Part shown: in pieces, positions 38,109-52,971 of the stretch | Layout of the letters: each line of letters begins with the position of its first letter | How positions within the stretch are numbered: the first letter of the stretch is position 1 | From: Candidatus Latescibacterota bacterium | Lineage (GTDB): Bacteria; Latescibacterota; UBA2968 | Direction: 5' to 3' | Length of the DNA stretch: 64,000 bases | NCBI GenBank assembly: GCA_965198115.1 | Contig: OZ240241.1 | Location: 7,520,001-7,584,000 of the forward strand | The notes under the pieces: model-generated | Seen by the model: only the letters and a program-made list of their open reading frames with translations | Database searches by the model: none | What the model was told of the DNA's origin: nothing | Translations under genes and position numbers: made by a program

Positions 38109-41100
38109 ATGCACCGGCTCAGAATCCTGACCTTCAACTGGCACGACCCCTACATCTACCTGTTTGCCCGAACCAGTCACGACATCCACGTCGGGGACTG
38201 GATGCAGCGCGCTGACGGCACCCGCGGCTGGGATCTCCGCAAGCGGCCCGTGCCCTCGAATGTGACGCTCATCGACGGCGAAGAGAAAGCCCGTGCCGCT
38301 ATCCAGAATGGCTCGCTGTCGCGCACACGCTGCAGGATATCGCTTTCCTGGAGCGTTTCGATATCGCGACGGTGTTCCTGACTCACAATGCCCTCCAGAA
38401 CGACGGCCACAACGACCCCCACGCCATGGGAGAGATTCGCCAGACCGTGCAATCCTTCCTCAGTCGTCGAAACGGCGTTTTCGCGGCGATTTCGGGAATG
38501 AAGCGCGACAGTTGGGGGCTCGACGGTCCGATCGTCAAGCCCGGCATCCCACTCGACGACTACGATGGTTTCGAGGGGTCGGTGGCTGAGGCCTTGTCGG
38601 TCGGAAACCTGTTCGTCGAACGCGACTTCATGCTCGGTTACAGCGCGATCGCCGAAGGTCTGGCCGACCTGCCGTATCGTCTGGTCGGCGTCAATCCAAG
38701 CCTGCCTGGCGTGCGTCAGGCCGAAGACTGGGACGAGCTCAGATCTTTTTACCGTACTCACCGCGTTTACGTGAACGCCACCGTCGAAGCGTTCGAGGAT
38801 GGCTACAACCTCGGTATGCTCGAAGCCATGGCGACGGGGATGCCCGTCGTGACGACGCGCAATGCGACGTCGCCGATCGTGGACGGCCAAAACGGGTTCG
38901 TTTGCGACACGCCAGATCAGATGCGTGAGTGTGTGCAGAAGCTCCTGGACGATCCAGAACTGGCGCGGGCGATGGGATCGTGTGCGCGGGAAACCGTCGG
39001 TCGAGCATTCGGACTCGACGCCTTTCGTCGAGGCGTGGAATGGGATCTTCGGGACCTGCCTGAAGGCTTCAACGAAGGCTCAGGCCGTTGGATCGGAAGA
39101 GCGGCTGTCGGGCGCGTGCCGGCTCGACGTGTCCAGAGACGATCTGTTCCCCTACACGGGGGATGACGTGTCCACGCTCCTGGCAACAGCCAACCTGGAA
39201 GCTGTTTCGATTCCGAGGATCAAGCTCGACCGGACCGGGAACGGCTACCTCGTCGACGTTTCTCTCTACGATGCCGAGACTCAAAAGACCTACGCGTGGC
39301 AGGGCATCGAGGTGCCTGCCGGGGGCACGATCGGGTGGCCTTCCTTCCTGGCGAACCTTCCAGCGGAGTTGAAATCGATGATCGCCGGAGCGATCGAGCA
39401 GACGGTCGATGCCGTCTCCCAGGATGCCCGAGCCTCACAGACACCCACGGTGGTGGTTACGCTGAACGCGTGCGAGGGAGCGGTGTATCGGGTGGGTGAT
39501 GACAGGGTCACACCCGGGGACGCGCGCTCCGATATCTACCTGCATCACGCCAAACGGTATGCGTTCGCGACGCAGTTCTGCGAAGGCAAGCGTGTGCTGG
39601 AGGTGGGTGGAGGAACGGGTTACGGTGCCCGCATTCTGGCGCGTCACGCCGACTCTGTGGTGTCGATGGATCTGTCGGCCGAGGCGATGGCGTTCGGGAA
39701 TCGGACGTTCGCGGCCGACAATGTCGTTCGGGTCACGTCCGATGCCAGAAACATTGCCCTGGGCGATGTCACGTTCGACACGGCCGTCTGCTTCGAGATG
39801 ATCGAACACATCGAAGAGCACGACGCGTTGCTGGACGAGGTCCGACGTCTACTCGCACCGGACGGCACGTTCCTGGTGAGCACACCCAACAAGATCATCT
39901 ACGACCTACCCGGAAACGAGAACGACTACCACGTCGGGATGCTGTCCCGCGATGATTTCGAGCTTCTGATGGGACGGCATTTCGAGGACGTATCGATCGT
40001 GGCCCAGCGCAGGGCGACGCCCAGCGAGCCCTTTTACGAGGCATTCGGTTTCGATGAGAAGGCGACCGACGACCACGAAGTCTTCATCGCGATCTGCAAG
40101 GGACCGCGAGGCCGTTCCTCGATCGCAGGCGCGCACGTGGAGGCGCCACGCGTCGAGGTCCGCGATGAGCGGGCGGAGCTCCAGGACGACGCTCCATCGG
40201 ACGATCGTCTTCGCGTTCTGTTCAGCCACGTGTCGAACCCGATTTCGGCCGGTCGATACTACGTCGACGCCTTCCGTCGTCACTGCGATGTGATCACGTG
40301 CGGGCCGATGATCGATGACAACGAGCTGGCAGCCTGGCGCGAGGCGGAGCACGAGCACGCCTTCAAGACTCTGGAAGATGCCGATCGGGACAAGCTGGAA
40401 CCGATCCGGCGGGCAGCTGAGCCGTGCGACATTCCCATGCCGAGTGGCCGTGTGAACGTGGACGAGGTGCTGAAAGCCCTCCCGGGCGGCTGGATGCCCG
40501 ATCTGTTCGTCTGGTCGGACAGCGCGACAGGGTTCCTGCCCGTCGGTCTGGAGCAGCTGGGTTGTCCCGCGGCTTGTCTGGTCGGGGATACCCATATCGG
40601 GCAGATGGATTGGCGCATCGATTACGCCCGTCTGTTTACGCACACGTTCGTGATGTTCAATCGGCAGCACATTCCACACTTCCAACGAGCGGGAATCCCG
40701 AACGTGACGTGGCTGCCGGGAGCGTGCGATCCGGTCTTCCATAGCGGAGAGCGTGCCGGAAAACGGTTCGATGTCGGGTTCGTGGGTCAGACCCATCGCA
40801 CCTGGCACCCGGATCGCGTCCGTTTGCTTCAGCGGCTGATGGATGCCGGGGTCGACGTGTCTGTCGAGAGCAAGATTCTGGAAGAGATGGGTCGCTTCAA
40901 CGGACAATGCCGGGTCGTGTTCAACCGCAGTCTGAACGGCGACCTGAACATGCGTGTGTTCGAAGCGCTCTGCTCGGGGAGTCTGCTGTTGACGGATCGT
41001 CTGGGTCCGGAGTCGGGTCTGGATGGTCTGTTCGAGGACCGAAAGCATCTGGTACTCTACGACGAACACAACCTCGAAGAGCTCGTGAGTCACTACTTGA

Positions 41101-41569
41101 AGCACGAGGCCGAACGCGAATCGATCGCCGCAGCTGGACGTCAGGCCGTCCTGAACGGCCACACCTACGACCATCGCGTCGCCCAGATTCTGGAAACGGT
41201 TGCCAGCAGTCCTGAACACCGAACACCGAACACTCCGTCCAAGTCGCTCCAACGATCGAACCTTGCCGTACTCAACCGGATGATCCCATCGAGGAACTCG
41301 CCACCTACACCGGCGAAACAGTCGACGCGGTCCGGGATCAGATGGAATCGGCCGGCAGCGACCTGGCCGAGGTCTGGCGCGAGCAGGATCGAGCGTCAGC
41401 ATCGGAGATCGACGCCTTTTACAAGGAAACCGACCGATATCTCTACGACCTGACGGCCTTCAACTACAGCCCGATGTACACGGGCTGGCGTGGTGCGATC
41501 TACAATCTATGCCAGCAGGTGAGCGAGCAAGTGGGTCCACGCGGTTTCGATGTGTTGGATTTCGGGGGT
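38109..41569 (+). CDS. Multidomain GT4 + SAM methyltransferase + CgeB-like GT + truncated second methyltransferase (frameshifted); probable flagellin glycosylation
   Basis: EDGYNLGMLEAMATG; VLEVGGGTGYG, FEMIEH; DLNMRVFEA, HTYDHRV; VLDFGG. Confidence 0.7.
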
Positions 41570-42130
41570 GAGGCCGAGGCCGAGGATCCCGAGCGTCTCG
41601 CACTCGAGCCGACCGGCGTCCGGCAACGGTTCCTGTCCACCTACATCCAGCAGGTGGAGCAGATGGCATCGGCGTCGCCGTCCGAACAGGCGCTTCTTTC
41701 GGCGGCGATCTACCTTTGGAACGACGACTTGACTCGATCTCACGAGATCTGTCAACGCTTCGAACGGTCGATTCCCGACGCCAGCTTCATACACGGGATC
41801 GTTCACCGCCGCGAGCCCGACTTCAACAACGCGCGAGTATGGTTTGGTCGTGCCGAGGGCATTCGCGGCGGCGAGGCTATTCGCGATGCCGTGTTGGCCT
41901 TGCTTCAGCGTGTCCTTCAGATGCCCGACTACGGGGCCGCCCGGGACACGGCCTTCGCGTTGATTCAGCATTTGCAGAAGGTGGGCACGTGGGACCCCGT
42001 GCGTCTGCTGGCGTTGTGCGAGGAGGGTGAGTGGAAGGAGGACGCGGTTCTCTGTCGGCTTCTCGAGGAGATTCAGGAAGCAGAGCTTCTGGCCGCGATT
42101 GAAGTCATCGGATCACGCTCCGCGGCCTGA
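41570..42130 (+). CDS. Conserved hypothetical domain (HRREPD motif) fused in frame to the methyltransferase stub
   Basis: YLWNDDLTRSHEICQ...HGIVHRREPDFNNARVWF. Confidence 0.55.
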   Translation, partial: EAEAEDPERLALEPTGVRQRFLSTYIQQVEQMASASPSEQALLSAAIYLWNDDLTRSHEICQRFERSIPDASFIHGIVHRREPDFNNARVWFGRAEGIRGGEAIRDAVLALLQRVLQMPDYGAARDTAFALIQHLQKVGTWDPVRLLALCEEGEWKEDAVLCRLLEEIQEAELLAAIEVIGSRSAA

Positions 42131-42640
42131 GCGAGCATCGGCGGCGGGTCCCCGTTTGAGCAGGAAGGGTAGAAGGACGGCGGAGAGGACGATTTCGGGG
42201 ATGAGATAGGACAGGTTGTAGAGAGCGGAGTAGACCCACACGGTCGTACCTTCGGGGGCGTAGCTGCCGAAGAAGACGATGCCCGACAGGAAGTGCGCGA
42301 TGAATCGAGCGCCTCCGCCCACGAGACAGGCCACGACGACCGTAGCGGGGAAAAATCCGCTGATCCCGAGGACCCCGAAGGCAAGGGGGTAATCGAGCAC
42401 GACCTGTATCGGGTGATAGATGTGGGCGCCGAGCAAGAGCTGGATGAGCCCGCACAGGATTCCAGCGCTGACGGCCGGGCGGACACCGCCCCAGATGGCG
42501 AGGTAGAGGATAGGGAGGGATTCGAGAGAAATCGAGCCGCCGTAGGGCAGGCGGGGGAGCGGGAGCGCCTTGAGAATCAGGCCGAGGACGACAGCGAGCG
42601 CTGCCGTGGTCGCGATGAGGGTCAGGTCTCGAACGCTCAC
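42113..42640 (-). CDS. thiT: ECF-type thiamine transporter S component
   Basis: PYGGSIS, HPIQVVLDYPLAF, HFLSGIVFFGSYAPEG, YSALYN. Confidence 0.9.
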   Translation of the reverse strand: MSVRDLTLIATTAALAVVLGLILKALPLPRLPYGGSISLESLPILYLAIWGGVRPAVSAGILCGLIQLLLGAHIYHPIQVVLDYPLAFGVLGISGFFPATVVVACLVGGGARFIAHFLSGIVFFGSYAPEGTTVWVYSALYNLSYLIPEIVLSAVLLPFLLKRGPAADARSGRGA

Positions 42641-43434: not shown

Positions 43435-44689
43435 GTGGCTGAAGAAAACGGATCGGAAACCAACGGCACCATTTTGGTCGCGCAATGTGAGCCACAGGAC
43501 CAGCATTTCGCGACGACGCTGCTCAGCACCGTCGGAAAATATTCGATCGTCGAGGCCAACTCTTCGACAGGGGTGATCCGGGGGCTGGTCGAGGGGCCGG
43601 ACCTGATCCTGGCCGATCCGCTCATCCCGGGAGACTTTCTTAGGATCGTCGAACTCATGCGACGCATGCCCAAGCTCAATCACGTGGCCATCGTGGCGTT
43701 GAGCGGCGGCCTGAGCCAGGTGGCCCGGTGTTCGGGGAAGGGTTTCAATGGTTTCATCGAGAAACCCTTCAAACCCGATACCTTCCTGTCGCAGATCTGG
43801 AGGATCCTCGACGCGCAGCCGCCCGCACCCGGCGACGGTAGTCCGGCTGAGCTGAACGTCGAGATCGACAAGATCGAGGGACTACCGACTCTTCCAACCG
43901 TCTACGCGCAGGTCGAGGAGCTGTGTGCCGATCCCGACGTCAATGCTGAAAAACTGGCGAAGGTGATCGAATCCGACCCGTCGATCACGATGACTTCTCA
44001 AGTTGTCCAACTCGGCGTTCTTCGGGTTCTCGCGAGAAATCAGGTCGATCGTGGATGCCGTTTCGCTGCTCGGGAACGAGACCGTAAAGAACGCCGTGCT
44101 GAGTATCTCCGTGTTCGAGGCTACGATGGATATGGAGACGTCGGCCGGTCTGGATATGAAGTCTTTCTGGCAGCATTCGACCGCGGTCGGCTCGGTCGTC
44201 CGGTTCGTGGCACATAAGATGAAGATTCAAAGGGAAGACAGCTTTACGGCGGGAATTCTACACGACATCGGTAAGGTCATTCTGGACTCCCTGTTCTCGG
44301 ACGTATATAAGAATGTGCTGGAGGCGGTAGAAGGACAGAAGATCTCGATTCTGGAGGCGGAAGAGCGGGGCATCGGACTCACGCACGCGAAACTGGGCCA
44401 GGAGTTGGCAGAGAATTGGGGGATCCCTGGGGGGCTGGCTCAGGCCATCCTGAGTCACCATCGACCCAAATCCGCCGACTCCGATGCCGAACTGGCCAGC
44501 CTCGTGCACATCGGCGACGCGTGTGCGCGCAATCTGGGATTCGGATCGGGTGGAGATCCCTACGTGCCATCGATCGACGCCTTCGCTTTCTCACACCTGG
44601 AGGTGAGTGGGAGCAACCTGATCGAATGGGAAGAAGAAATGAAGCAGGTCGTCGAGAAAGACATGGCATTCCTCTCCGCCATCGGGTAG
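43435..44689 (+). CDS. Receiver-like + HDOD domain protein (frameshift ~43995)
   Basis: FIEKPF, LPTLPTV, NSAFFG, FWQHS, GILHDIGK. Confidence 0.85.
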
Positions 44690-44694
44690 AACAG

Positions 44695-44729
44695 GAAAGG
44701 CCGTCATCCTTCAAGGACGACGGCCTTTC
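44695..44729. terminator. Bidirectional terminator
   Basis: GAAAGGCCGTC...GACGGCCTTTC. Confidence 0.7.
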
Positions 44730-44758
44730 ATTTCATACTCTCTGCTCTCTGTGCGACG

Positions 44759-45031
44759 CTATTTGTGCGCAGCCTCCCAAATCGGCTGGATTTTCTCGAT
44801 CAATTCTTCGTCGGTGGCCGACGATCGGACGATGTCAGTGAACTCATCGGCCGATATGCCCAGTTCCTCCAGGAACCTTTTGTCGGCTCCTCACGGATAA
44901 ATGTAATCACCGATCGTTCCCCGTAGAAACGCGCGTGCCTTGTCGGCGATTCTGGGTAACCAGGGAACACCGCCCATGATGAGTGGCCGACTGCGCGGTC
45001 GAAAGTCCACAGACTCACTCAAGCTGTCCAC
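44759..45031 (-). CDS. DUF5069-like protein, candidate selenoprotein (UGA at codon 47)
   Basis: Manual translation MDSLSESVDFRPRSRPLIMGGVPWLPRIADKARAFLRGTIGDYIYP-U-GADKRFLEELGISADEFTDIVRSSATDEELIEKIQPIWEAAHK; SD GGGGTG; SECIS-like hairpin. Confidence 0.75.
44858..44890 (-). promoter_or_regulatory. Candidate bacterial SECIS element
   Basis: GCC-GACAAAA-GGTTCC-TGGA-GGAACT-G-GGC directly 3' of the UGA; loop begins 19 nt after the UGA. Confidence 0.55.
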
Positions 45032-45076
45032 GTGTGCATCACCCCGCTTTCCTGTTAATTCGTCGATTCCCAGAAG

Positions 45077-45104
45077 AATCTAAGCCCTTTGTGGGGCGTG
45101 TCAA
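45077..45104 (-). promoter_or_regulatory. sigma70-type promoter for the DUF5069-like gene
   Basis: TTGACA-16 nt-TAGATT on the minus strand. Confidence 0.5.
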
Positions 45105-45178
45105 CCGCTCCCCCCGCTCTATCACGTTTACGTGTTGTGCCCCGTGTGTCTCCGCCCTGTGATGCGACCCTTCCGCGT

Positions 45179-45745
45179 TCATTCGGCGGTGAAGGTCGTC
45201 AGTGTCGTCTCCCCATAGGCTTTGCTGCGCGTCTGTGTGAATCCCTCGTGACTCGTGGGGAGAACCAACGAACCGTGGTGCTGGACGAGGATGCGTGTGT
45301 GCGAGACGCAAAGGGGAGAGGCAACGAGCGCTTCGAGTGCGGCCACGGCTAGGGGCACGCCCCGCGACTGCTCGTGGTAGGGCGGGTCGAGATAGGCGAC
45401 GTCTACGGCGCTCTCGAACGGGGGCGAGGAAAGGAACGCGAACCCGTTCTGACGGCTCAGCCGCACCCGCTCGGTGATGTTCCATTCATCGATCAAGTTT
45501 TTGACGAACGCGTAGCGCCGCCCGTCACGTTCGTTCATGACGACGTCGGCACCGCGGCTCCACGCCTCGAGCCCCATCTGACCTGACCCTGCGAACAGGT
45601 CGAGGAACAGCTTGCCCTCGAGGGCGGGCCCGAGCGTGGCGAAGGCCGCTTCCTTCACGAAGTCGGACGTGACCCGCGCGTTGCCGTATCGCTTGTTGTT
45701 GAAAGGGATTCTGCGACCCCGCAGACTGCCCGACACGATCCTCAA
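45179..45745 (-). CDS. rsmD: RsmD family rRNA methyltransferase
   Basis: LRIVSGSLRGR, FLDLFAGSG, YLDPPY, KAYGET. Confidence 0.88.
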   Translation of the reverse strand: MRIVSGSLRGRRIPFNNKRYGNARVTSDFVKEAAFATLGPALEGKLFLDLFAGSGQMGLEAWSRGADVVMNERDGRRYAFVKNLIDEWNITERVRLSRQNGFAFLSSPPFESAVDVAYLDPPYHEQSRGVPLAVAALEALVASPLCVSHTRILVQHHGSLVLPTSHEGFTQTRSKAYGETTLTTFTAE

Positions 45746-46041
45746 GGTTTCCTCGTCCGATCCAAGATTCTCCCTTTCCAACCTGTGGCCTGGGAATGGC
45801 TGCGGAGTATTGCCGAGTCACTTCCCCGACTAGGGCCACCATCCTCGGGCTGAGGCACATCTGTGTCCATCGGTGTTCATCTGCCTGCCCTGAGTAAGCG
45901 ACCGCTGTACCGAAGGGTGGTTCCTGCCTCTTCCGCTCTGATACGATATCCGCCCGACTCGCCGCCGTCAACGGGCGAGAACGTTGACTCCGGAGCGAAC
46001 ATTCGCCTACAATCGGACCGAACCCTTCACTCGAGGAATGC

Positions 46042-49021: not shown

Positions 49022-51483
49022 CGCTGGCCACGATCGGAATAGGACACTGGTTTTTCATAGACTTAGCGAGCCCCCGTTCATCGAGGACGGCCGCGATATG
49101 GCGCTGGAGTCGCGTATGTTCGGGGTGGTCAGGGTCGATCGCGAGCGCCCGCTTGAGCGTCTCCCACGCTCTTTCGACGTTTCCTGTCCCCATCCAGGCG
49201 GCGGCCAGACCGAGCCAGATTTCTGGGTCCCCCGCGTTCAGACGTGCGGCTCGACCGAATGCCGCGGTTGAGCCACCGTAGTCCTTCTGTCTCAGGAGCA
49301 GCGCCCCGAGGTTTCGGTGGGCCATGTGCAGCTGCCCATCGAGCTGGATCGCTCGCACGTAGCGGGCGCGCGCACTGTCCGGCTTTCCGTGGTGTAAGGC
49401 TTCCAGCCCCAGTTCGAACAGTCGTCGGGCCGCAAACCCGCGCAGGAAGGTCTGTTCGCGGTCCGGGTCACGTCGTGTGAGCAGACGATAAAGGTAGTCT
49501 GTTCCGATGGTCTTGAGGCCCAGGTCGACGAGACCGACGGCGTCCCACCACGTAGGCCCCGCTGTGCCGACCTGCTCTCGCGAGGCGTCGTAGCGTCCGA
49601 GCTTGAGGTAGACTTCGGCGAGTAGCATTCGGGGAAGTGAGGCCCGGATGTCGGGCGATCACGTCCTCGAGGAGCTCGGCGGCTGCCGAGAGTCTTCCTC
49701 TCCGATAGTCCTTCGCGGCCTGGACGACCGCGCCATCGGGTCGAGTCGGGTCATCCAGGATCTCCGTTTTCCAGGCTTCGATCAACGACCGGTCGAACGT
49801 TGTCTTTCGGAAGAGGTCGACTGTCGGTCGGTCGAAGCCGGTGACGCTGGGTTCCGCATCCGATTCGTCGTAGTCGACTCCGAAGAATGTGGGCGCCCGT
49901 TCAACGCTGGCCAGATGGTCGAAACCCAGCTCCCCGGCATACAGCCGGTCGTAGAGTGAGGCGCCGAGTCTGTAGTGTGACCGGGCAGCCTGGTATTGAC
50001 GGGCCCGGTTTTCGCGAATCAGGATCCAGTGGTCGATGGGGTCGAGGGCCTCGCGAACGAGGTCGAGGACGTGAACGTCCAGGACGCCCCCGTGAGCACG
50101 TACGAACAGACTGCCCATGTCGGGTATGGCTCTCGATCCTTCCGGAACCATCCAGCGGGTCGGAAACCCTCCGGTCTCGGCGTAGACGACACTACCGTGA
50201 GGAATGCGCTTTTCGATCTCGCGACGGGCTTCGTAACGGACGTTCTCGGACGTGTAGATATCGGAGATGGCGAAGGCGGCCGGTGCAGTGAGGGCGAGGA
50301 GGAAGATGGCCGGAATCGCTCGGAGATGGACGTGCCAACCAGCCAGACGATGACCCAGCGCCGAGGCACACCACGCAGCGAAGAGAGAGAGTGCCGGAAG
50401 CATTGGCAGTGTGTATCGCACGGGTTTCGAGAACAGACCGCCGACGACGAGGAAGTAGGGCAAGACCCACGCGAGCAGGAACACGGCGTCCCACGTCCGC
50501 CGCCGAACCGCCCACATCAGACCGAGGATCGAGGCAGCAAAGACGGGAACCCCCTGAGCGGTCGGCAGAAGATCGGTCAGGTAGAACAGGTAGGGTGTGG
50601 TGCCGAAGTCGTAGAGCGTCCACATACGGATCTCTGTGCCGACGACGACATCGACGCTCGGTGCGAAGTCCCTCTGGTCGTCTCCCACGTAGAGCTCGCT
50701 CCTGTCGAGCAGGAGGAAGGGCGTCGAGGCGGTCGCGATGATCAACACGATGGCGGCGGTGAGGATCGACCGGGCACTGAAGAGCACGTTGACCCGGGTC
50801 AGGAACGACGAACAGGCCGAGCGAAGCGTGTCTGACGCAACGTAGAGATGCCTAACGACATAGGGAATGACGAGAAGCCCTGCGAGGAGACGATAGCCGG
50901 TCGCTGCGCCGACGGCCAGCCCACAGATGATGTAAGGTTGGATCGAGTCGCGTGGGAGTCTCAGAATGGCCAGCAGGCCGAGTGTCGTGAATAGCGTGAT
51001 CGAAACATCGACGGTGTAGTAATGGCACTGCTGAATGTGGCCGGGTGTCAGGGCCAGAATCGCCGCGGCTACCAGGCCCGTGCGTGTGTTGTCGAGTCGG
51101 GTAGCCAACAGGTAGACGGCCCAGATCGTGAGGACACCGGCCAGCCCCGAGACGGCCCTGGCTACGACGTGGGTCATTCGAAGATCGTCGTTCGCCGAAC
51201 CGTAGGGTGTATACTCCAGGACAGGCGACAGCGTCCTGTTGATCGACCAGAGGAGATAGGCGGGGAGGTGGCCGTAGGCGGTCGTGGTCTTGCGAACGTC
51301 CTCGCTCACCCATCTTGCGTTCGCGATCAGGGTGACTTCATCGGGGTGGAAGGGATGGAACTCGCCCGTTTCCGTCTCGGTTCCCCAATCGAGGCCGGTC
51401 AACCTCAGAACCCCACCCAGGAGCAGGATCGCTGCGAGCGCGATGTGGGTGCGACGCCAGTCTGCCGACGTGCGATCGGGCAT
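49011..51483 (-). CDS. GT39/ArnT-like membrane glycosyltransferase with C-terminal TPRs (frameshift ~49630)
   Basis: FHPDE, multiple TM helices, HYYTVD, RYTLP; TPR-like 49011..49628. Confidence 0.75.
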
Positions 51484-52207
51484 CAGGTGGACCGGAAGTA
51501 GCGGGCGTGGATCCGGAGCAGTTCGTAGGGGGCTCGCAACACGTCCGAAGGACGGATTTTGGAGCCACCCACGTCATGCCAGATTTGCAGGGGGAGTTCG
51601 TAGACCTGCTCGGCGCGGGAGACTCCGCCGGCCGGGAGTGTGAGCCAACGCGCGAGAAGCTCGACGTCGAAAATCCAGCGACTCGCGAACGGTTCGGCCA
51701 GGATGGTGCGCAGCTCGTCGGAGACACGGAACAGTTTTGCCCCGCATTGCGTGTCGTAGACGGCACCGAGAGAATGGCCGAAGCGGCCGTGGCGAAGATG
51801 CGGCCGAGATAGTGTCGGACGTTGCTGCGACGAATGTCTCGGCCGAGCAGGTTGATGCGGGCGCCGAGAACGAGGTCGGTGTTCGGGTTCTGCGCGAGGA
51901 CGTCGATGAACCTCGGGATCTCGTCGAGAGGGGTCGCGAGGTCGGCATCCCAGTATCCGACGCGGGTCGCACCCGCGTCGATGGCTTCCAGCAGACCGGT
52001 TCTGACCGCTTCGGCCTTTCCCATGTTGCGCGGGATGTGAAGCAGACGATGCGGCCCCCCCTCGCACAGGCCTTCGACGATCTTTCGGGTTTCGTCGGTA
52101 CTGCCATCGTCGACGAACAGGCAGGAGACAGAAGCGGGCACGTCCTGGAAGGCGTTCACATCGAGGCGGTGAGCCTCGTTGTAGCAAGGGACGACGATGA
52201 CGGTCAT
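51483..52207 (-). CDS. GT2 polyprenol-phosphate glycosyltransferase (frameshift ~51770)
   Basis: VPCYNEA, VDDGSTD, GKAEAVR, WDADLATP, DTQCGAK, WIFDVE. Confidence 0.85.
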
Positions 52208-52971
52208 CCGGTCTCCCGTGGGAACTGGAGAACGGCGAACAGACTGACGCCTGTCTTGAACGGCGGGGTGTTGTATCGACGGCCCGTCGCTCGAAGCAGA
52301 TGACGCCCCTCCCCCTCGAAGATTTTCTGTAGGAGACCGTTCACGGGCAACGGAGGCAGCCAGAGATCCGTATCGGCGCCGCCGAGGGTGATTCCACGCC
52401 AGGCGGTGTAGGCGCGAAGAAACCGAACGAGCGGAAAGAGTCTCGAGTTGAAGTGTGTGAGAACCAGTTCGACGACGTTCAGGGCTGCCCACCGTTTTCT
52501 GAGACTCTCGGGGGTGTAGCGCCGGCGATGTCCGTGGCCCGTGTCGTGGGGGCTCCACGCCACATCGGCCGCGGGTACGGTGATGAAGACGTGTCCACCG
52601 GGGGAGAGCACGGAGGCCCAGCTCTGGAGGAAGTCGATGTCGTCGTCGATGTGCTCCAGGACGTCGGCCAGAAGGATTGCGTCGGCCCGCAATCCGGGTG
52701 TCTGGCGTGGGTGAGAGGCTTCGATGAAGCGGATGTCGGGGTAGGCGGACCGAGCGTAGCAGAGCGCGGCTCCGGATGCGTCGATTCCGGTGCAGTCGAA
52801 GCGAGACCCGAAGCGGGCGATGTTGGCACCGGTGCCACATCCGACGTCGACGAGGCGACCGCCTCTCGGAACGTGTGCCTCGATGGTCTCGGCGAGGATC
52901 CGACGGCGGGCAACGAACCACCAGTGATCCCGTTCGATTCGGTCGTGCAGTTCGAATTGGTCGGTTCGCAA
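52204..52971 (-). CDS. Class I SAM-dependent methyltransferase
   Basis: HWWFVARR, DVGCGTG, DVLEH, WSPHD..GHRRRY. Confidence 0.88.
   Translation of the reverse strand: MRTDQFELHDRIERDHWWFVARRRILAETIEAHVPRGGRLVDVGCGTGANIARFGSRFDCTGIDASGAALCYARSAYPDIRFIEASHPRQTPGLRADAILLADVLEHIDDDIDFLQSWASVLSPGGHVFITVPAADVAWSPHDTGHGHRRRYTPESLRKRWAALNVVELVLTHFNSRLFPLVRFLRAYTAWRGITLGGADTDLWLPPLPVNGLLQKIFEGEGRHLLRATGRRYNTPPFKTGVSLFAVLQFPRETG

Follow-up and report, generated by a model that had tools for sequence, protein, structure and literature searches.

A predicted selenoprotein gene of the DUF5069 family

We analyzed a stretch of 64,000 nucleotides from contig OZ240241.1 of a Candidatus Latescibacterota bacterium (positions 7,520,001 to 7,584,000; hereafter the window), and in particular a minus-strand gene that an original prediction, made from this DNA, had described as a hidden DUF5069-like gene with an in-frame UGA codon. 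The frame runs from a GTG (45031-45029) over 46 codons to the TGA (44893-44891) and, after 43 further codons, ends at a TAG (44761-44759). Coordinates and translation hold when checked on the sequence, and the frame is indeed missing from the list of open reading frames (ORFs), which comprises ORFs of 70 aa or more. The position of the start codon is common to the orthologues. The gene stands alone, with an rsmD-like gene on one side and a convergent HDOD gene on the other (Table 1). In a profile search the read-through protein matches PF16798 with 66.8 bits (cut-off 27; E 2.8e-18), which bears out the proposed family identity. Judged from the sequence comparisons below, this is very probably an intact stand-alone gene coding for a selenoprotein of 90 residues, in which the UGA at codon 47 is very likely decoded as selenocysteine (Sec) via SelB.

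Alternation of UGA and cysteine codons among relatives

In a protein search of 168 genomes, 120 of the 132 genomes of the host class gave the short form, one copy being a contig-end fragment; the 36 other genomes of the phylum gave none. At column 47, the 92 class loci that were read carry TGA in 77 cases and TGC or TGT in 15; three extra loci, which hold long DUF5069 forms, are not counted. Homologues with such UGA/Cys pairs also occur among metagenome loci (58 TGA and 22 Cys in the best 80 of 157) and among GTDB loci, mostly titled Ca. Poribacteria (70 TGA and 10 Cys in the best 80 of 413). The class, metagenome and GTDB collections overlap and are not dereplicated. In the class of a Clostridia-titled genome (Bacillota), the gene occurs in 19 of 95 genomes, and two of the 14 loci read have TGA. 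Similarity continues past the UGA as well: the frame runs 39-53 codons further in 204 of the 205 TGA loci, and synonymous changes are frequent both 5' and 3' of the UGA. Because relatives carry UGA or a Cys codon at the same column, the UGA very likely stands for Sec.

A tree built on 89 rows, to which 209 distinct ones were thinned, with column 47 masked and the hairpin codons retained, requires six Sec/Cys changes, five of which are forced by well-supported branches; the tree fixes neither a root nor the direction of change. The Cys form of genome G004, whose stem is already broken, is sister (100/98) to the G021 TGA form and is likely a recent reversion.

This distribution bears on two readings in which the UGA would not encode Sec. 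A true stop, leaving a pseudogene or a 46-residue peptide, or a TGA created by assembly error, would be in line with the 11 of 150 database representatives that terminate exactly before this codon and with one or more split genes lying next to it in the assembly. Yet the same TGA recurs in 204 loci from three phyla besides that of the congener G001, gene length and the protein downstream of the codon are conserved, and the hairpin described below is tied to the TGA forms, which leaves this reading extremely improbable. Reading of the UGA as another residue, i.e., as Trp by a changed code or as Cys by a suppressor tRNA, is by the codon evidence also very improbable. Trp does appear at column 47 in three of 13 close homologues (P0004, P0005, and P0007), but the column alternates with Cys codons only, and TGA is an ordinary stop in the host too, where it ends the neighboring rsmD; it also ends the short DUF5069 gene itself in several TGA-bearing relatives. 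The truncated and the Trp-bearing database entries are likely misannotations, the Trp being likely gene-caller output.

A conserved hairpin downstream of the UGA

The hairpin that had been proposed as a selenocysteine insertion sequence (SECIS), GGTTCC-TGGA-GGAACT, lies at 44877-44862, with its loop 19 nt past the UGA and a G at loop position 2. Its geometry falls within the constraints for bacterial SECIS (bSECIS) elements given in the consulted part of the review PMC13188914 and is shared with the SelB-dependent bacterial selenoprotein genes with an intragenic SECIS covered there. The hairpin forms in a 44-nt fold (-13.7 kcal/mol, z -2.1). A comparable hairpin follows 5751 of the 251,906 TGA triplets of the genome (2.3%), only two of these hairpins having UGGA at 19 nt.

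In the host class, 76 of 77 TGA loci vs. none of 15 Cys loci have a 5-bp core whose loop carries G at position 2, and the loop reads TGGA in all 77 TGA loci. The Phe-Leu-Glu-Glu codons of this region are near-fixed in the class TGA loci (TTC in 75, CTG in 77, GAG in 76, and GAA in 71), unlike the usage of the same amino acids elsewhere in the same genes. At the same time the stem varies in a paired manner: of the class TGA loci, 39 have G-C and 38 have C-G at pair +15/+28, and pair +14/+29 changes to T-A in 60 of 70 loci of the Poribacteria-dominated set. Among 26 diverse TGA loci chosen from 112 distinct sequence windows, 95.5% of the cells are paired and changes on both sides are seen in 15, as against 0 of 500 shuffles. 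When all loci are pooled, the strict hairpin is present in 195 of 205 TGA loci and in none of 47 Cys loci. In the two TGA forms of the Bacillota class, the hairpin differs in sequence and has a G-containing loop at 19-20 nt. In three loci (L258, L260, and L261), one codon is inserted after the UGA, so that the hairpin, still intact, is shifted by 3 nt, from 19 to 22 nt, which provides a natural test of the tolerance for hairpin spacing. Two further TGA loci (L213 and L192) are without a UGGA loop; their SECIS may be of another form, or they may be decaying.

Sec decoding capacity

The host possesses selA, selB, and tRNA-Sec within 5 kb of one another, plus selD, so the machinery asked for by the original prediction is in place, and none of the refuting conditions it named was encountered. 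The selD gene itself carries one in-frame TGA, behind which a hairpin of its own places a GGUC loop at 17 nt. Across the host class, selB matches occur in 122 of 132 genomes and the UGA forms track Sec-using genomes, 74 of the 77 class TGA loci being located in selB-positive genomes. Both Bacillota-class TGA forms reside in genomes with selA (2/2). Conversely, G092, G093, and G154 give no selA or selB matches and have the Cys form; one of them has a marginal tRNA-Sec match.

Several observations weigh against a Sec-encoding gene with a SECIS. Taken by itself, the hairpin of the window is weak, marginal evidence for a SECIS, and folds of 54 and 101 nt favor a rival stem that shares its 5' arm. 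The covariation signal amounts to about two clade-level changes, and kinship among the genomes makes the locus counts overstate independence. Ten TGA loci fall outside the strict hairpin register, and the generic bSECIS rule at 4 bp is passed by 33 of the 47 Cys loci too. Three TGA loci belong to genomes without a selB match (G007, G082, and G109), of which G082 is 80% complete and the other two have selA and tRNA-Sec. Finally, 12 of the 15 Cys loci of the class are found in selB-positive genomes.

A short, helical form of DUF5069

Residues 12-82 of the protein align with positions 4-74 of the 133 positions of PF16798. Membership in DUF5069 therefore holds at the gathering cut-off, but for a short form without the C-terminal part of the domain, and we file the predicted protein as a short subfamily. 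Its predicted structure resembles the N-terminal 86 residues of PDB 3omd, an uncharacterised Leptospirillum rubarum protein of 145 aa that is covered up to residue 86. The model consists of four helices and has no strand of three or more residues; residue 47 is located immediately before helix 48-57. Compared with PF16798 and 3omd, the short form has Sec where they have Cys, and it co-occurs with the APH-like kinase discussed below. That the UGA falls on the family Cys was rightly claimed, although this Cys is common rather than invariant (112 of 170 wider-family domains).

The motif around the Sec is YxYPU-x-x-D, and no CxxU, UxxC, or UxxT/S motif is present in the short protein. A thioredoxin-like selenoprotein was considered and does not fit, given the lack of these motifs and of a central beta-sheet in the model. 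No second Cys is conserved in the short DUF5069 proteins: 49 of 205 TGA loci have a Cys at +24, and none of the 70 TGA loci of the GTDB set has any further Cys. A set of Arg, Lys, and Asp residues (R13, R15, R27, D30, K31, R33, and D50) is conserved. We consider Sec47 to be probably the working residue of the protein, likely as a reactive nucleophile.

The host genome holds seven other DUF5069 matches without an in-frame stop. Five DUF5069 genes besides the short one (G000:C1 2939689-2940159, 7954559-7954969, 6470654-6471073, 6067092-6068372, and 638951-639340) have no in-frame stops; one of the five has three tandem domains and lies just upstream of a gene that resembles a sirtuin by its motif.

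Association with a kinase-like gene

In 45 of 51 f4 loci, a gene of ~330 codons is located immediately upstream of the short DUF5069 gene, often overlapping its start. Its invariant residues K31, E50, D184, and N189 occupy kinase-like positions, the Lys, Glu, Asp, and Asn being common to APH/choline-kinase-like phosphotransferases (PF01636), which the nearest Atlas clusters also carry. In the PDB, structures of APH(3') and of hygromycin kinase were matched weakly (E 0.03-0.07), and three members scanned against Pfam gave no match. From these features we assign the partner as an APH-like kinase; it differs from the APH phosphotransferases in not being a drug-resistance gene by any test made. 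A further gene of about 125-197 codons lies on the same strand upstream of the kinase in 36 loci (e.g., L154:3332-3922). Pfam yields no match to it above the cut-off, and G000 contains a homologue (929511-929885).

The two genes are also linked by their occurrence. In the 132 class genomes, both are present in 115, the short gene only in five, the kinase only in three, and neither in nine. All eight discordant genomes have at least 150 contigs, and in one of them (G094) the contig ends within the kinase. Fisher's test yields p = 1.6e-8, a value that overstates the association because of kinship among the genomes. The kinase is found in 57 of 61 genomes of the Poribacteria phylum; in the four that were examined for it, the two genes are not linked. 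Each of the ten kinase-positive genomes of the Bacillota class has the short gene, in nine cases adjacent. Since kinase-positive genomes nearly always have the gene and the reverse is less so, the kinase seems to depend on the small protein more than the small protein on the kinase. Based on adjacency and co-occurrence in relatives, we regard a functional link between the two as rather likely.

In the reading we favor, SelB and the downstream hairpin very likely insert Sec at codon 47 of a helical, one-Sec protein of 90 residues, whose selenolate would probably do its chemistry alongside the kinase-like enzyme. More tentatively, the kinase would make a phosphorylated small molecule, the conserved Arg, Lys, and Asp residues would hold it while the selenolate attacks, and a flavin reductase of FNR or TrxB type would restore the selenol; such an external reductase would be needed because no second Cys is conserved. 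This attack on the kinase product, with binding and reductase reset, is the least certain part of our proposal and may well be wrong. Spelled out as a two-step system, in which the kinase phosphorylates a substrate hydroxyl, Sec displaces the phosphate, and an FNR/TrxB-type reductase frees the product, the scheme is unlikely in its details.

On the side of function, four observations weigh against this proposal. Kinase adjacency is seen in none of 41 own-order and f3 loci, and in the host the kinase gene lies about 1.9 Mb off (genome 5644298-5645062). The kinase was undetected in nine of 19 gene-positive Bacillota-class genomes, including the TGA-bearing G237, and 32 of 170 wider-family domains have Ser instead of Cys.

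The occurrence of the gene without a detected kinase in Bacillota-class genomes would suit a stand-alone redox protein with one Sec, active in peroxide, persulfide, or disulfide chemistry and recycled by a reductase, for which the link with the kinase would be inherited gene order. Most characterised selenoproteins are redox enzymes, according to the consulted part of PMC13188914. FNR-like genes of two types follow the gene in 33 and 7 loci (40 in total), Grx-TrxB genes precede it in five, and in the window the gene has its own promoter-like site and terminator-like hairpin. We hold this explanation to be possible but doubtful: besides the lack of a CxxU or UxxC motif and the rarity of the Cys at +24, every kinase-positive Bacillota-class genome carries the gene, and both genes are absent together from four near-complete genomes of the host class (G026, G036, G077, and G101), of which G026 and G036 come from an order where the genes are unlinked.

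A second explanation, which we think improbable though worth keeping, is that of a redox- or metal-sensing regulatory subunit, in which the state of Sec47 would switch the kinase by binding, without turnover. The small size of the protein, the many f4 loci in which its gene and that of the kinase show a stop-start overlap, and the near-constant company of the short gene wherever the kinase occurs are consistent with it, as is an open frame of 387 codons in G264 (L338:496-1656) that joins a kinase-like domain and a short DUF5069 in one. The latter is a single case, however, and may represent either a genuine fusion or the loss of a stop codon. With one conserved Cys/Sec ligand only, a metal site would require Asp30, Asp50, or a dimer. 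Moreover, repeated exchange of Cys and Sec, here with at least five changes, is more typical of catalytic residues.

Gene context in the window

The features of the locus are compiled in Table 1. Of the expression signals originally noted, the candidate TTGACA promoter is the sole promoter-like site in 44600-45300, with 10 of 12 matches (shuffles, 0.1 +/- 0.4). A purine-rich stretch does precede the GTG, but its match to a Shine-Dalgarno sequence is partial only (AGGAAAGCGGGGTGAT). Likewise, the suggested terminator corresponds to a strong hairpin at about 44731-44696 that is not called by a terminator scan because its T-run is short; hairpins like it are found 3' of most own-order orthologues. 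The rsmD-like neighbor is conserved beside the short gene in the host's own order.

Table 1. Features at and around the short DUF5069 gene (window coordinates).
Feature	Position	Strand	Evidence
Short DUF5069 gene; predicted selenoprotein, 90 codons + TAG, GTG start	44759..45031	-	PF16798 match, translation
In-frame TGA, codon 47, context Y-I-Y-P-U-G-A-D; inferred Sec	44891..44893	-	Sequence, TGA/Cys orthologue column
SECIS-like hairpin, 6-bp stem, UGGA loop (44871-44868)	44862..44877	-	Folding, conservation, covariation
Purine-rich, partial Shine-Dalgarno-like stretch	45036..45052	-	Sequence; AAGGAG or GGAGG in relatives
Candidate sigma-70-like promoter consensus TTGACA-16-TAGATT	45077..45104	-	Sequence scan
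Strong inverted repeat, likely two-way terminator, between short DUF5069 and convergent HDOD genes	44696..44731	.	z -4.7
rsmD-like 16S rRNA methyltransferase gene, upstream of short DUF5069 gene	45179..45781	-	Domain matches, gene-order comparison
Receiver + HDOD gene, convergent, split across two frames	43435..44689	+	ORF list, domain matches

The split of the receiver + HDOD gene falls near 44000-44200, where the public contigs X1 and X2 have the same sequence as the window; the orthologue in L189 is a single ORF of 483 codons. Glycosyltransferase-like frames at 38109-41453 and 51338-52921 are seemingly broken across frames in the ORF list, which suggests further frameshifts in the assembly. 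A Thia_YuaJ thiamine transporter gene is located at 42113-42640 on the minus strand, with no nearby riboswitch match at gathering score. Elsewhere, a chorismate mutase/prephenate dehydratase gene lies closely 3' of the short DUF5069 gene in 61 of 80 Poribacteria-titled loci (L250-L329).

Significance of a short DUF5069 selenoprotein

The family was not known to the original prediction as one of selenoproteins, and DUF5069 was absent from the lists checked. It has no row in Table 1 of the 2026 review PMC13188914, a table that covers 119 prokaryotic selenoprotein families. It is also absent from the searched text of PMC12013277 (deep-Sep), including a term search of four supplements, and from the searched text of PMC13326102 (BSepDB), whose family table possibly stands outside the part covered. 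NCBIfam 20.0 has no model for the family, and a full-text search for 'DUF5069' and 'PF16798', with subscription papers and RefSeq annotations outside its reach, returned no paper. Set against the SelB-dependent selenoproteins in the consulted part of PMC13188914, the short DUF5069 protein is all-helical and has neither CxxU nor UxxC. It is thus very likely a new selenoprotein family inside a well-known decoding system.

With the short form, the bacterial selenoproteome would gain a family whose all-helical fold is not that of thioredoxin, spread over three phyla and mostly in uncultured bacteria, and the half-length database entries of this gene would be accounted for. A hairpin that is kept together with the UGA and decays in Cys revertants of Sec-using genomes offers a natural experiment on the gain and loss of Sec. 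If the two-step system were true, it would be undescribed and near-universal both in Poribacteria and in the Latescibacterota-like class; Sec would have been gained or lost five times or more and would sit on a helical scaffold unlike that of any listed selenoprotein. For DUF5069, which has a solved structure yet no function, the Sec indicates the likely working residue, and this lead, together with that of a candidate partner, makes the family directly testable.
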